From a virus (lineage: Duplodnaviria; Heunggongvirae; Uroviricota; Caudoviricetes): a stretch of DNA of 40,110 nt. The translations under genes and the position numbers were made by a program. Positions 3,159-34,540 of this stretch are shown here, one piece after another. The DNA is taken from the IMG/VR virus record IMGVR_UViG_2897369580_000002. The stretch is one strand, 5' to 3'. The first letter of the stretch is position 1, and every line of letters starts with the position of its first letter. Below the pieces are notes generated by a model. That model saw only the letters and a program-made list of their open reading frames with translations. It did no database searches and was not told the origin of the DNA.

Positions 3159-5621
3159 TCAATTCCCTGTTAATTGCAAAACTTGCTCTTCCAGCTTTTT
3201 AACCCTGCGTCTCATCATCGCAGATTCCAGAATCAGAGCCTCTTCATAACGGATACCGTAACATTCACCAGCCTCGACGGCTTCGCGTACCAGAACCTTT
3301 GTCTGTATAAGTGGGTAAACTCCTGCAGAATGCTCTTCTTCCGTCACATCCCTGTATTCTGCCGGGGTCTCATTCCACTTGTCATAACAGATAAATGCCA
3401 GTCGTGACACATCTATGCCTTCATTCTGAAATACACTGATAACATGCTGCGCAACTGCACCAAAGTGCCATCTTGCTCCGTCTTTACCTTTCACTTCGAT
3501 CCTGTCAAGGTACTGGTATGAAACCCATTCCACTCTTTCCCATGCGTCCAGTATTTTCTCATCAATAACCTCTGGAGCAGTCTTGAAACGCGCATCGGAC
3601 AGCACCGTAAACGCTGACTGGGTAAATCCCCCCGACCATGCACGACCAGCCAACCCAAGAGAATAAGTATTCGTTGTCGATGGTGTCATGGCTGAATCAG
3701 AAAACTGTATATATTCTGAATTTCCAGTAGATATTCGAATATTTCCATTTATTAGCGACATAGTGCCTTTAGTATTATCACTATTGAATAATTTCAATTG
3801 CGAACTTATACCGCCTCCCACAGCCAGAGATACATCGCCTTCAGCAAGCATTCTGAATTTATCTGCAGAAACAAGCGTCTGGTTAGCAAGGTTAAAATAT
3901 TTAACCCACCATTCAAAACGCCCTGACATAGTCCCAACGTACTGACCAAGCGCAGGGACGTGAACAACATTGCTATTTGTAGTGCCGTCTATACTGGAAA
4001 TACCAGTCACCGCTGATGCAGAACTCAGAATATTATTTCTGTCACCCGGATGTTTAATTTCAACAAAGTTCCTGATACACCCTTCCTCGAAGGTAACCAC
4101 GCCGGAAGAACTATACATGGGGAATATTGACGCATAATTACTGCGTGCAGCATCTAAGAAACGAATGGTTGTAGATGTCTGCAGATCTCCTGATTCATTT
4201 TTCCCATCACACCCAGTCATTAGAATATTACTGGCAATATTATTATTTCCCTGAACGGTGACTCCGTGCGCCTGCTTTGCGTCCGATTCAGAGTAATCAA
4301 CCAGCACATTCGAAATCAGGTTACCAGTCCCCTTGCCAACAACTACTGCGGCGTATTTTGGGTTGTTAGCCATTACACTGCTAATGATATTATTCGTTGG
4401 GGCAGTTTCCGTCTCAGTTCCATTGTAAACAACGTGCTGACACTCTTCACCAATAACATTGCTGACAATGTTATATTTTGCTGCTGTTTTAAGTTCCACT
4501 GCACCAAACTGAGGATAATTTCTGGCTATCACACCATCAATTAGCGTATTTTGCGATGAATCAAAAAGCACACAACCTGCTTTTTTATTATTTGCGAACC
4601 CTAAATACTCTCCTCTTATATCTCTAACAATGTAACCTGACGGAATACCATTATTCGGATAAGCGATCAAGCTAAATCCTGTTCCTCGCGTATTTGTAAA
4701 TCTGATATTTTTAACCGATACATCATGGCCACCTGAAAATGACACCTGGTGTCCCTGCACACTATCATCTGATTTATTTCCCATAATTGTTAGCGTACTA
4801 AGCATGCCACCATCGGGCATGTTAAAAACCAGATGATTACCATCTCTGTCATACTGTTTTATCGTTCCCCCACCTGTTCCGTACAAGCCACAACGTGAAA
4901 GAGAAACTAAAGATGTATTGAATACCCCTTCCGGAACAAAAACACTGCTAAACGAATGTAATGATTTTGTAAAAGCATCCTTGTTATCATTTAAGATTCC
5001 ATTTTGAGCTCCAAAATCCTTAATGCTGACACCATCACGCATCTTATCCTGGAACGTTCTGTATACCGCTCCAGAACCATACTGAATAAACCAACCAAAA
5101 CCACCAATAACTCCGGCGATTGCAGCATCGACATAATTACGCATTGAGCGATTATTTACAGCGTCCTGCTCAAGTGATGGATCGGCAAGGTTAGATATTC
5201 TGTTTTGCTTTGCATCGTAATATTTTGCAAGCAAAGATGGTTTCATCAATGCACGTCTGAACCACCCAAAACATCGCTGGATCAGCATCGTCAGGTAGTC
5301 AAATGCATCCTCATGAACTTCGGGGAAAAATTTTCCCTGATTGCGAAGATCAGTCTCCTGCACCACATCAAGCACACGCTCTATCGTGATTCGCCAGCCA
5401 GCAGCAAGCGGCGACGGAAGAACCACTGCACCGCCACTATAAGTTCCCGCCCCTGTTACCGTATAACCAGCATCCAGCACTAGTTTTGTAACGTTACCGT
5501 TAAGGTCAGACACCTGAACAACCAGGTCGGATTTTTTGAAAATACGGAAGGTATACGGAAATGATGTCGTAACGCCGTTACCTGTGTATTCGTTGTGGTC
5601 AACTTCGGTTGAGACCGTCAT
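3159..5621 (-). CDS. tailspike / tail fibre with beta-helix domain and C-terminal intramolecular chaperone (peptidase S74-like)
   Basis: Central pectate-lyase-like signature (GVSIKDFGAQNGILNDNKDAF); C-terminal ~146 aa begin with SDARFK auto-cleavage-type motif typical of self-cleaving chaperone domains; RBS GGAG. Confidence 0.8.
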   Translation of the reverse strand: MTVSTEVDHNEYTGNGVTTSFPYTFRIFKKSDLVVQVSDLNGNVTKLVLDAGYTVTGAGTYSGGAVVLPSPLAAGWRITIERVLDVVQETDLRNQGKFFPEVHEDAFDYLTMLIQRCFGWFRRALMKPSLLAKYYDAKQNRISNLADPSLEQDAVNNRSMRNYVDAAIAGVIGGFGWFIQYGSGAVYRTFQDKMRDGVSIKDFGAQNGILNDNKDAFTKSLHSFSSVFVPEGVFNTSLVSLSRCGLYGTGGGTIKQYDRDGNHLVFNMPDGGMLSTLTIMGNKSDDSVQGHQVSFSGGHDVSVKNIRFTNTRGTGFSLIAYPNNGIPSGYIVRDIRGEYLGFANNKKAGCVLFDSSQNTLIDGVIARNYPQFGAVELKTAAKYNIVSNVIGEECQHVVYNGTETETAPTNNIISSVMANNPKYAAVVVGKGTGNLISNVLVDYSESDAKQAHGVTVQGNNNIASNILMTGCDGKNESGDLQTSTTIRFLDAARSNYASIFPMYSSSGVVTFEEGCIRNFVEIKHPGDRNNILSSASAVTGISSIDGTTNSNVVHVPALGQYVGTMSGRFEWWVKYFNLANQTLVSADKFRMLAEGDVSLAVGGGISSQLKLFNSDNTKGTMSLINGNIRISTGNSEYIQFSDSAMTPSTTNTYSLGLAGRAWSGGFTQSAFTVLSDARFKTAPEVIDEKILDAWERVEWVSYQYLDRIEVKGKDGARWHFGAVAQHVISVFQNEGIDVSRLAFICYDKWNETPAEYRDVTEEEHSAGVYPLIQTKVLVREAVEAGECYGIRYEEALILESAMMRRRVKKLEEQVLQLTGN

Positions 5622-5724: not shown

Positions 5725-5741
5725 ATTACCTTTCAGGTAAT
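5725..5741. promoter_or_regulatory. palindrome ATTACC-N5-GGTAAT (TTACC-N5-GGTAA family, copy 1)
   Basis: ATTACCTTTCAGGTAAT, perfect 6-bp arms; in divergent region between tailspike and the LexA-box gene. Confidence 0.6.
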
Positions 5742-5777: not shown

Positions 5778-5797
5778 TACTGTATAAATATACAGTT
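5778..5797. promoter_or_regulatory. LexA (SOS) box
   Basis: TACTGTATAAATATACAGTT: CTGT-N8(AT-rich)-ACAG, near-consensus; about 20 bp upstream of the RBS of the 5818 gene. Confidence 0.75.
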
Positions 5798-5817
5798 ATT
5801 GCATGGAGAAGATTAAG

Positions 5818-6075
5818 ATGCAGCAGTATCACTATCCACTGGAAGAGGGATTTACCGAAAGGATTCACACGCCGGGAGGCGTCAGGTCACTGGTGGAGGG
5901 ATCGCACTTGATGAAATTACTCCGGGATCTCGATAAGGATGGATTTAATGTCGATGGCCCACTTGCCGAACTGACTGCACTGATTAACTACGTCACCAGC
6001 TCACAGATGTCTATGCAGGATCTGCAAACACATCTCGACTATTGTGCCGAACAATTACGAAAACAAACCAGATAA
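5818..6075 (+). CDS. small protein homologous to the C-terminal domain of the adjacent antirepressor
   Basis: ATG at 5818 with RBS GGAGAA (alternative ATG at 5803); aligns with the C-terminus of the 6391-7086 product (LMKLLRDLDKDGFNVDGPLAELT vs LMNLLNQLQEDGHDVSGAAAELT; DLQTH vs DIQTH). Confidence 0.6.
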   Translation: MQQYHYPLEEGFTERIHTPGGVRSLVEGSHLMKLLRDLDKDGFNVDGPLAELTALINYVTSSQMSMQDLQTHLDYCAEQLRKQTR

Positions 6076-6106: not shown

Positions 6107-6121
6107 TTACCTTTGCGGTAA
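6107..6121. promoter_or_regulatory. palindrome TTACC-N5-GGTAA (copy 2)
   Basis: TTTACCTTTGCGGTAAA at 6106-6122. Confidence 0.55.
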
Positions 6122-6390
6122 ATTTACAACGCACTCCTCTTGTGCCATAGTAATCGAGCACTGGCAAAATCCAGTGCCGGGATTGGCGTCCCGGATTACT
6201 AAAAGGCGCATTCACCGCGCAAGCGGTTTTTTTATGCGTATAGCACGGCCACATTCGTATTATGGTGGGCTGTGTGGGGGCACCGAAAGGTGCGCCGGGT
6301 CCTTTTAGCCGGTTACGCCAACCCTGCACAGTTCACCACCAACCGATTGGCGTCGGTAGTGGTGATTAACCAGACTAAAAGGTAACCACT

Positions 6391-7086
6391 ATGACAGCTA
6401 CAAAAAGCACGTCCATTTTTTCTTTCGAATCCCAAGCCGATATACGGGTAATCGTCATTAATGGTGAGCCATGGTTTATCGCTTCAGATGTTTGTCGGGC
6501 TATAGGCATAGCAAACCATCGAGATGCTGTTCGAAAACTTGATGATGATGAGAAGGGCGTCGCTTCAACCGACACCCCTGGCGGTGAGCAAGAATCGATC
6601 ATCATCTCCGAGTCAGGCCTCTACACACTGATCCTCCGCTGCCGCGACGCAGTGACACCAGGCACTATCCCCTACCGCTTTCGTAAATGGGTTACAGGTG
6701 AGGTTCTTCCTCAGATCCGCCGCACCGGAAGTTACATTAAAAACTCGCTCCCGCAGGAAGAACGCATAAAGATGGTTGCCGACCAGGTAGCCAACGCCAC
6801 GGCGTCAGCAGTAATGCAGGCGATGAAGATAGAGAACAAAACCTACAGTGCCCCACTGAAGCCCGGCTACCGCAGCCTGATTCATTCGCCGTCTGGTGTT
6901 CTCGGCCTGACGGAGAACTCACTGCTGATGAATCTGCTGAACCAGTTACAGGAAGACGGGCACGATGTATCGGGCGCGGCGGCGGAGCTGACCACCATGT
7001 TCTGCTACATCGTCGGTGTGAGCAAATGCCTGCGTGATATCCAGACCCACGCGGAGTACATCAACGACAAAGCAGGATTCTTCTGA
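6391..7086 (+). CDS. Bro-N domain antirepressor (Ant-like)
   Basis: N-terminal Bro-N signature (FSFESQADIRVIVINGEPWFIASDVCRAIG); RBS AAGGTAACC; C-terminal domain shared with the upstream small protein. Confidence 0.75.
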   Translation: MTATKSTSIFSFESQADIRVIVINGEPWFIASDVCRAIGIANHRDAVRKLDDDEKGVASTDTPGGEQESIIISESGLYTLILRCRDAVTPGTIPYRFRKWVTGEVLPQIRRTGSYIKNSLPQEERIKMVADQVANATASAVMQAMKIENKTYSAPLKPGYRSLIHSPSGVLGLTENSLLMNLLNQLQEDGHDVSGAAAELTTMFCYIVGVSKCLRDIQTHAEYINDKAGFF

Positions 7087-7215: not shown

Positions 7216-7542
7216 ATGACAAAACTTGGATTCGTGATGAGAGGTCCGGTAAGAAGCGGAACTCATGCAAAGCGTAGCAAGAGTCGTATTTTTACTGGTA
7301 AGGTTGTAGCACGTAAATCAGCTATTGGCTCGTTCAATAGTGAAAATGCGGCATTGCGCCATATTTTTATCAGCACAAAGCCAAGAGCATCCGCTGATGT
7401 GCATACAATGTCTATTCCTATCACAAAGAATATCAAGCGGATAAAAAAGCTCTCATCTGCAGAATCAAAAGAGATATCTTTCCGCCAGCTTAACTCATTA
7501 GAAACGCATATGAAGGAAGAGGAATTCGATGTTTTTGAGTGA
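7216..7542 (+). CDS. hypothetical basic protein (AT-rich cargo operon, gene 1)
   Basis: ATG with RBS GGAG; Lys/Arg-rich; visibly lower GC than surrounding phage DNA; overlaps next gene. Confidence 0.5.
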   Translation: MTKLGFVMRGPVRSGTHAKRSKSRIFTGKVVARKSAIGSFNSENAALRHIFISTKPRASADVHTMSIPITKNIKRIKKLSSAESKEISFRQLNSLETHMKEEEFDVFE

Positions 7543-8041
7543 GTATAGCGGGAAGGTTATACCTACTGGTGAGTTTAAAACTGATGACTTTCTGATTTCG
7601 CTAAAAGATGCTTTTAAACAACACTGGCGTCATGGTCATCATCCTGATCTGGGAAAAGATACTCTTTTTGAAAGACCAGACGAAGTATTAGGCTTCCATC
7701 TCAGAAAGGTTCATGTCAATATTGGTGAATATGCATCATATTCATACTCATGTACTGAACAGTGTTGGGATGAGTGGTCATATGGATTGATTGATGAACA
7801 AGGAAATTACAGGCCAAAACCAACCAGTAACGCATATCTCATATATGCAGTCAATGAAATAAGAGATGCAGCCTTACTAGCTTATTGGGACCCGCCCGCA
7901 CACACCAAAGCTAACGCAAAAGTTTGGATGGATTCCGTATTGAATTTCACAAAATTATTTCATGAACGAACGAATACAGCTCCACTTAGTAGAAATGTTT
8001 ATCCGTGGGATTATTCGTACAAATCCAAAAAGCCTGCATAG
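7529..8041 (+). CDS. hypothetical protein (AT-rich cargo operon, gene 2)
   Basis: ATG with RBS AAGGAAGAGGAA; start overlaps end of gene 1 (coupled); aromatic and His-rich; no recognisable motif. Confidence 0.5.
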   Translation: MFLSEYSGKVIPTGEFKTDDFLISLKDAFKQHWRHGHHPDLGKDTLFERPDEVLGFHLRKVHVNIGEYASYSYSCTEQCWDEWSYGLIDEQGNYRPKPTSNAYLIYAVNEIRDAALLAYWDPPAHTKANAKVWMDSVLNFTKLFHERTNTAPLSRNVYPWDYSYKSKKPA

Positions 8042-33837: not shown

Positions 33838-33868
33838 TCACCCATAAGGTAACAAAAATCAAGGATAG

Positions 33869-33883
33869 TTACCTATGAGGTGC
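33869..33883. promoter_or_regulatory. degenerate TTACC-N5-GGTGC palindrome (copy 9)
   Basis: GTTACCTATGAGGTGCA at 33868-33884. Confidence 0.4.
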
Positions 33884-33885
33884 AT

Positions 33886-33900
33886 TTACCCGTTGGGTAA
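33886..33900. promoter_or_regulatory. palindrome TTACC-N5-GGTAA (copy 10)
   Basis: TTTACCCGTTGGGTAAT at 33885-33901, between divergent Cro-like and repressor genes. Confidence 0.55.
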
Positions 33901-33955: not shown

Positions 33956-34540
33956 ATGAAAAGTATCCAGGACGTCCGCAGGCAAAATCTCAACGACTTG
34001 ATCGACCGTGAATTCAATGGTGTTCAGACGCGGATGGCAGAAAAACTTGGAACTCAGGCAAATCTGGTAAACCGCTGGGCTCTTGGCAAGAAGGTTATCG
34101 GCGACCAGGTTGCGCGAAAAATTGAAGCTGCCGCCAATAAACCACGTAACTGGCTTGATATCGATCGCTCGCTTTCTCAGGAAGGTTTTCAGCCTGTCGG
34201 CCCAAGCGACATTGGTCAGCTGGCGGCTCACAACCTGGAACGCTGGATGAGCGAAAGCCGCGACCTTTCAACACAGGGAAAACTTCACCGCGCATCCGGC
34301 GTCGCCCAGGTGACAATCAGCCGCCTGTTAAACAATGAGGTCAGCGTTTCCATTTCCACCCTGGAGAATGTTGCATCCGCATTCGGGCGTCACGGCTATG
34401 AATTACTGATTCACCCGCACGACCCTGCGACCATCAACTATGACCGCTCGCGCTACGCATTGTTACCCGAAACCGAGAAAGCAAAGATCGAAAGTTATAT
34501 TGAATTTGTCATCAACCAGAACGAAAAAAACAAACAATAA
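33956..34540 (+). CDS. prophage repressor candidate with tandem HTH domains, no autocleavage domain
   Basis: Two HTH-like regions (QTRMAEKLGTQANLVNRWALGKK and GKLHRASGVAQVTISRLLNNEVSVS); no Ala-Gly / Ser-Lys peptidase S24 signature seen; own terminator. Confidence 0.55.
   Translation: MKSIQDVRRQNLNDLIDREFNGVQTRMAEKLGTQANLVNRWALGKKVIGDQVARKIEAAANKPRNWLDIDRSLSQEGFQPVGPSDIGQLAAHNLERWMSESRDLSTQGKLHRASGVAQVTISRLLNNEVSVSISTLENVASAFGRHGYELLIHPHDPATINYDRSRYALLPETEKAKIESYIEFVINQNEKNKQ

Follow-up and report, generated by a model that had tools for sequence, protein, structure and literature searches.

An 85-residue ortholog of SPC32H Ant as the probable SOS-controlled antirepressor of an epsilon15/phiV10-like phage

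The ant locus and its control elements

The DNA analysed here (the window, a single stretch of 40,110 nucleotides) comes from an epsilon15/phiV10-like temperate podophage of the genus Uetakevirus, and between positions 5600 and 7200, it is 95-99% identical to the E. coli phages ZX5, TL-2011b, and phiV10 and their relatives. The small antirepressor gene, ant, lies divergent from a tailspike-like gene and upstream of the block of virion genes (Table 1), a slot that is conserved in the Salmonella phage SPC32H. In the phages PAS61 and YDC107_2, the homology to the window ends at position 6075 (query position 476), which is the final base of the small ant stop codon.

The stretch from 6076 to the virion genes (at about 8880) is a variable cargo slot, the contents of which differ among relatives (isrK/C4/Bro-N ant, DUF2335, and YafO-like genes). 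In the window, it also holds two overlapping cargo ORFs 3' of the Bro-N ant gene, 7216-7542 (108 aa) and 7529-8041 (170 aa), which belong to phrog_5933 and phrog_1651, both of unknown function. The second of these gives a sub-threshold match to YafO_toxin (E = 9.5e-4, 19.7 bits against a cutoff of 25), and related prophages have a YafO-like 181-aa gene in the same slot; the two ORFs may be a toxin-antitoxin pair.

Table 1. Genes, RNAs, and sequence elements of the two antirepressor genes and of the presumed target repressor
Feature	Position	Strand	Basis or remark
Tailspike-like gene, 820 aa	3159-5621	-	divergent from small ant
Palindrome TTACCTTTCAGGTAA, putative Rep operator	5726-5740		40 bp upstream of LexA box
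LexA (SOS) box CTGTATAAATATACAG	5780-5795		CTGT-N8-ACAG; aligned with SPC32H box
Shine-Dalgarno GGAG of small ant	5805-5808	+	sequence
Small antirepressor gene ant, 85 aa + stop, SPC32H Ant ortholog	5818-6075	+	homology, synteny
Second palindrome copy, 1 mismatch	6107-6121		between two predicted promoters
Predicted sigma-70 promoter TTTACA-17-CATAGT, TG before second hexamer	6123-6151	+	consensus scan only
c4-a1b1 target region	6145-6197	+	Rfam 43.1 bits, just below gathering 46.7
isrK-like RNA	6158-6233	+	Rfam isrK 77.9 bits (gathering 50), full model covered
a1 TTGGCG	6183-6188	+	exact repeat
b1 CTAAAAGG	6199-6206	+	exact repeat
Intrinsic terminator of isrK-like RNA	stem 6214-6227 + T-run, to 6233	+	terminator scan
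C4-type antisense RNA	6258-6343	+	Rfam C4 77.7 bits (gathering 45)
C4 loop b' CCTTTTAG	6301-6308	+	complementary to b2
C4 loop a' CGCCAA	6316-6321	+	motif
a2 TTGGCG	6347-6352	+	exact repeat
b2 CTAAAAGG, Bro-N ant ribosome-binding site	6375-6382	+	8 nt before ATG 6391
Bro-N antirepressor, 231 aa	6391-7086	+	Pfam Bro-N E = 2.3e-21, residues 17-107
Ant-like C-terminal domain of Bro-N protein	residues ~148-229 (about 6832-7077)	+	5D50_E, phrog_450
Rep, presumed target repressor, 194 aa	33956-34540	+	homology to SPC32H Rep

The program-made list of open reading frames extended the small ant frame to an upstream ATG at 5803. We place the start at 5818 because three observations agree on it: the position of the GGAG element, the annotations of phiV10 and ZX5 (both of which start at the equivalent of 5818), and the first residues (MQRQYHH) of the SPC32H protein that was crystallised. 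The sequence-only reading of this locus had put the gene directly under a LexA box, and rightly so: the box is near-consensus and ends 22 nt 5' of the ATG. Only three CTGT-N8-ACAG sites, this one among them, occur in the 40-kb window; as an extended 20-nt element, the box matches the consensus TACTGTATATATATACAGTA at 18 of 20 positions, and the Klebsiella relatives keep it with one mismatch. A consensus promoter scan found no promoter for small ant; a candidate picked out by eye (TGGATA-17-TACTGT) is weak and conserved.

The palindrome upstream of the LexA box is one member of a larger set. The pattern TTACCT-N3-AGGTAA occurs 18 times in the window with up to two mismatches (0.9 expected), clustered around rep, with sites at 5726, 6107, 7159, 25030, 31517, 31579, 33838-33900, 34598, and 34661. 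Copies flank rep on both sides, and others precede the two ant genes and the portal operon. SPC32H has the same pattern, including a copy upstream of its own ant, and the copy upstream of small ant is conserved in E. coli, Salmonella, and Klebsiella relatives. We suggest that the palindrome probably serves as the Rep operator, in copies dispersed across the genome like the C1 operators of P1. The expected start of the predicted promoter that follows the second copy fits the 5' end of the isrK-like RNA at 6158.

The small protein and its presumed target

By tblastn, the small Ant is 89% identical over its full length (85-86 aa) to the ant product of the Salmonella phage SPC32H/SPN1S, and the gene is annotated "ant: anti-repressor protein" in both SPC32H and SPC32N. 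A phmmer search aligned residues 2-84 with residues 3-85 of chain E of PDB entry 5D50 ("Anti-repressor protein", 86 aa) at E = 1.6e-47; in this entry, SPC32H Ant is crystallised with its repressor, Rep. The upstream regions of the two phages also align, with the LexA box, a GGAGAAG stretch, and the ATG all conserved. The suggestion, made from the sequence alone, that the small protein could be the actual inducer is supported by this identity, the shared slot, and the shared LexA box. Across 849 bp around ant, SPC32H and its derivative SPC32N show two differences only, a substitution in the tailspike gene and a change in the right arm of the LexA box (ACAG to AAAG). The two phages are reportedly just two nucleotides apart, and Kim and Ryu, in 2013, are said to have found that Rep stays uncleaved during the SOS response, that it is inactivated by the small, LexA-repressed Ant, and that the LexA-box mutation causes constitutive Ant synthesis in SPC32N. 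In structure, Ant is said by the SPC32H authors to differ from the LexA-controlled antirepressors Tum (coliphage 186), GfoA/GfhA (Gifsy), and AntC (N15); the likeness to these seen here is one of regulatory logic, and no Pfam or NCBIfam family in common was found. The shared logic, as set out in a review, is that of a non-cleavable repressor inactivated by a small protein under LexA repression (PMC7380047). The mechanism by which SPC32H Ant acts on Rep has been described, and Ant is reported there to be a tetramer (PMC9638917).

Small Ant matches phrog_450, a family of stand-alone proteins of about 88 aa, at E = 1e-47; both it and the Bro-N protein also hit the C-terminal part of phrog_1760 ("anti-repressor", 232 aa). 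In our phage collection, tblastn found the gene at full length in 35 records at 59-99% identity, and its homologues form 138 protein clusters, mostly of 85-86 aa. When the fused copy in the Bro-N protein was aligned with eleven stand-alone sequences (small Ant of the window, SPC32H Ant, and nine database homologues), 20 columns were invariant, including Y4, P7, I16-H17, P19, G21-V22, G42, A50-E51-L52, Y58, and H72. The 85-aa protein and the Ant-like C-terminal domain fall in no Pfam or NCBIfam family; the sole match, DUF724, was below threshold and was dismissed. Nearly every database entry, and the records of the E. coli Uetakeviruses (ZX5 included), label the 85-aa gene "hypothetical protein". 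A profile search of 1.84 billion representative proteins returned only 61 members of the Ant-domain family at E ≤ 0.001, which are either free-standing (about 80-95 aa) or longer, with the domain at the C-terminal end and Bro-N, AntA, or Phage_pRha at the head.

The presumed target, Rep of the window, shares 42% identity with SPC32H Rep, and its match to 5D50_A has E = 4e-42. Its only recognised domain is a helix-turn-helix (Pfam HTH_3); an S24 peptidase domain was not found by Pfam, and Rep is therefore not a repressor that cleaves itself as lambda CI does. Rep variants from phages of E. coli, Enterobacter, Klebsiella, and Salmonella are 43-78% identical overall, and the most conserved stretch across them is the last ~30 residues, with 14 invariant positions in the pattern I-x-Y-D-x3-Y-x2-L-P-x2-E-K-x-K-I-x3-I-x-F-x3-Q-N (residues ~160-194; window 34430-34540). 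This tail corresponds to the tetramerisation domain of SPC32H Rep ("CAD", with a p53-like fold), which is also reported to be the domain of interaction with Ant (PMC9986798). The domain that the sequence-only reading had presumed to bind repressor is thus a demonstrated repressor-binding domain in SPC32H; since the Rep of the window is just 42% identical to the Rep used in the structural work, we infer the binding of the window's own pair from the conservation of the tail. The distribution of the two families agrees with such a pairing: in the phage collection, the Rep family occurs in 37 records and small Ant in 35, essentially the same phages, and the Ant-like domain, free or fused, is found only in records with a Rep-family repressor.

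Small Ant is thus like SPC32H Ant in its position and orientation beside the tailspike gene, its LexA box, Shine-Dalgarno, and start codon, and a repressor of the Rep family with a conserved C-terminal tail. It is unlike SPC32H Ant in that the host is E. coli, the cognate Rep is much diverged overall, and an isrK/C4/Bro-N ant module follows the gene. A Rep 100% identical to that of the window is also found, annotated as a VapI antidote, in Escherichia phage BP9 (PP488543.1, 138 kb; 133604-134185), a phage that is absent from the small-Ant matches; the BP9 record may be chimeric or contaminated, or may represent a Rep without an Ant.

The Bro-N neighbour and its RNA module

The C-terminal domain of the Bro-N protein matches 5D50_E at E = 1e-13 and phrog_450 at E = 4e-36. 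Aligned by BLASTP, small Ant and residues 150-223 of the 231 share 31 of 74 identities (42%) without a gap at E = 7e-16. The alignment with the C-terminus of the neighbouring antirepressor, from which the sequence-only reading had started and which it proposed to check by pairwise alignment and structure prediction, is therefore significant, and small Ant resembles its neighbour because the Bro-N protein bears the same Rep-binding domain at its C-terminus. Structure prediction was informative for one half of the Bro-N protein: the AlphaFold2 model is confident for the Bro-N half only, and the C-domain has a pLDDT of <70, as would be expected for a domain that forms oligomers or complexes. Because the C-domain is poorly modelled, a Foldseek search of the PDB with this model yielded nothing at E ≤ 0.001; the matches listed were only weak, SKI/Dachshund-like ones of about 91-96 columns, with no 5D50 among them.

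Homologues of the whole fusion (Bro-N::Ant-C) with 70-80% identity occur in E. coli, Salmonella, and Klebsiella; all those sampled adjoin an 85/86-aa small Ant and lie in Uetakevirus-like prophages, and the pair is a recurrent design. The domain has also been joined to other heads. In P0241, a 216-aa AntA-domain protein, the last ~80 aa are identical to those of the Bro-N protein of the window (6838-7086), and Ant-domain modules have therefore been swapped between unrelated heads at the linker. We also considered whether the fusion is widespread in lambdoid Stx phages and rejected the idea: the Stx matches cover the isrK/C4 segment only, and the Ant-like domain was not found there.

An isrK-like RNA and a C4-type antisense RNA lie between the two ant genes, and the 243-nt RNA has the expected hairpins in its predicted fold (z = -4.8). 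Both RNAs are also found ahead of the Bro-N ant of phiV10 and of a Klebsiella prophage, and where there is no Bro-N ant, neither RNA is present. The arrangement is like that of the immI region of P1/P7 (c4 - icd - ant) in its C4, its a2/b2 repeats, the placing of b2 over a ribosome-binding site, and its putative a1/b1 sites, where the repeats are exact and the Rfam score is just under threshold. It is unlike immI in that the b2 of the window sits directly at the ant Shine-Dalgarno and icd is missing: no icd homolog was detected, and there is no gene between the C4 end (6343) and ant (6391). The arrangement is also like isrK-orf45-anrP of Gifsy-1, where an isrK RNA with a terminator lies upstream of an antirepressor gene and where IsrK in trans activates anrP translation (PMC4825925). 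Both likenesses concern the RNA control module of the Bro-N ant and not the small ORF. By analogy with these systems, the C4 region probably prevents the Bro-N ant from being translated until RNA bearing a1/b1 becomes abundant.

A 37-codon ORF (6272-6385) lies over the C4 RNA gene and is annotated as an 'ash family protein' in ZX5; NCBIfam gave no match for it. It stops 5 nt before the ATG at 6391 and does not overlap it, whereas orf45 of Gifsy-1 overlaps the antirepressor start (AUGA). The ORF is either a mis-annotation of an RNA gene or a counterpart of Gifsy-1 orf45, a leader ORF coupled to anrP.

Two antirepressors and prophage induction

We conclude, with a probability of about 0.88, that the ORF at 5818-6075 is the SOS-controlled Ant of this epsilon15/phiV10-like phage and that the SPC32H mechanism transfers to it. 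In a lysogen, host LexA bound at the box would silence ant; DNA damage would lead to LexA cleavage and hence to synthesis of Ant, which would bind the C-terminal tetramerisation domain of Rep and split the DNA-binding Rep tetramer into dimers, so derepressing the lytic genes. We regard the mechanism as transferable because the Rep tail is conserved and Rep and Ant co-occur. What was observed here is homology, synteny, a LexA box, a Rep homolog with its conserved tail, and the RNA elements; LexA control, Rep binding, and tetramer disruption come from the literature on the ortholog, and each would carry over to the window phage. On this reading, the Bro-N protein is a second, accessory antirepressor, acquired together with the isrK/C4 antisense-RNA control module.

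That the Bro-N protein is an antirepressor at all is supported by work on ZX5. The protein of the window is 100% identical to ORF4, the 'anti-repressor' of E. coli phage vB_EcoP_ZX5, a nearly identical phage whose Rep is likewise identical to that of the window. When ORF4 was overexpressed, the lysogen titre fell from 10^9 to 10^6 (about 1000-fold) and repressor transcription fell by 75%; the paper treats the Bro-N protein as the antirepressor and neither mentions nor cites SPC32H (PMC9782041). ORF4 is like small Ant in its Ant-like C-terminal domain and unlike it in being a 231-aa Bro-N fusion under C4/isrK RNA control rather than LexA control. The same result bears on the possibility that the two proteins divide their targets, with small Ant acting on the resident Rep and the Bro-N Ant acting in trans on the repressors of other prophages. 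The C-domains are indeed just ~40% identical and the fused clade is distinct, and trans-acting antirepressors are documented for Gifsy (PMC3121763). However, the Ant-like domain is confined to phages with a Rep-family repressor and ORF4 affected ZX5 itself, for which reasons we consider separate targets unlikely; the position of every sampled Bro-N::Ant-C homologue beside a small Ant in Uetakevirus-like prophages also speaks against them.

The sequence-only reading had offered, as its other suggestion, that the small protein is a modulator or decoy of the full-length Ant, for example through mixed oligomers that tune or block the large protein. Both proteins contain the same domain, mixed oligomers are conceivable given that SPC32H Ant is reported as a tetramer (PMC9638917), and the genes adjoin in many E. 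coli, Salmonella, and Klebsiella prophages. Small Ant nevertheless occurs where there is no Bro-N gene to modulate, in SPC32H, epsilon15, BUCT711, PAS61, and YDC107_2. PAS61 and YDC107_2 have a Rep 100% identical to that of the window. In phiV10, whose Rep is also 100% identical, small Ant is intact beside a Bro-N ant (2287-2985) that is frameshifted inside its Ant-like C-terminal domain (the product ends in SLLMNRTTGMMYQARRRS), so that, by its sequence, the accessory antirepressor seems to have been knocked out naturally. These identical-Rep phages make a decoy role unnecessary, and as the small Ant of SPC32H is itself reported as the inducer, we judge such a role highly improbable as the main function. 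The five phages without the Bro-N gene, the point at which the homology of PAS61 and YDC107_2 breaks off, and the phiV10 frameshift lead us to regard small Ant as the constant element and the Bro-N Ant as accessory.

That the 3' end of the neighbouring ant was recently duplicated in place to give the small ORF, or that this ORF is a functionless remnant, as the adjacency and 42% identity of the two might suggest, is scarcely credible when the stand-alone copies (small Ant of the window and SPC32H Ant) and the fused C-domain fall in separate clades of a rough neighbour-joining tree, the protein is conserved at full length across the 35 records and 138 clusters, the gene has its own LexA box and Shine-Dalgarno, and its ortholog has been crystallised. 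From the separate clades, we conclude that the two genes of the window are old paralogs. The paralogy that was read from the sequence is therefore real as far as the shared domain goes, and the notion of a free copy made locally is not: of the two, it is the small gene that is resident and conserved, and the Bro-N fusion that is accessory cargo.

With small Ant taken as the SOS-controlled inducer, the two genes could be linked in a two-input feed-forward circuit, in which one Rep-binding domain is used twice, once gated by LexA and once by C4/isrK. We put this forward tentatively, at well below even odds. Because there is no terminator between 6075 and the isrK terminator (6214-6233), which is the sole plus-strand terminator found downstream of small ant, SOS transcripts of ant should carry a1/b1. 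Such a transcript would make Ant and bear the a1/b1 (IsrK-like) sequence in its 3' UTR; this RNA could titrate C4 and allow the Bro-N::Ant fusion to be translated, and the fusion might add to small Ant or co-assemble with it on Rep. The putative Rep operators at 5726 and 6107 would provide positive feedback once Rep is removed.

As the small gene is the ortholog of the experimentally and structurally characterised SPC32H Ant, the finding is largely already known, and it may be only the two-input design that is under-described. Some points are perhaps not explicit in the accessible literature: that this Ant is present, under a hypothetical-protein annotation, in the E. coli Uetakeviruses; that the C-terminus of the "BRO-like" antirepressor is the same Rep-binding domain; and that shuffling has joined the domain to Bro-N, AntA, and Rha heads, with one copy under LexA control and the other under C4/isrK control. 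The pairing of several signals extends known principles and adds no new one. The main value of the analysis is in annotation: recognising the small gene as a LexA-controlled Ant explains how DNA damage is sensed by these prophages, some of which reside in O157 and other pathogenic E. coli. Small, mobile, and without a Pfam family, the Rep-binding domain gives a handle on the variable C-termini of "BRO-like" antirepressors, and the LexA-gated and RNA-gated copies of this one domain make multi-signal prophage induction testable.
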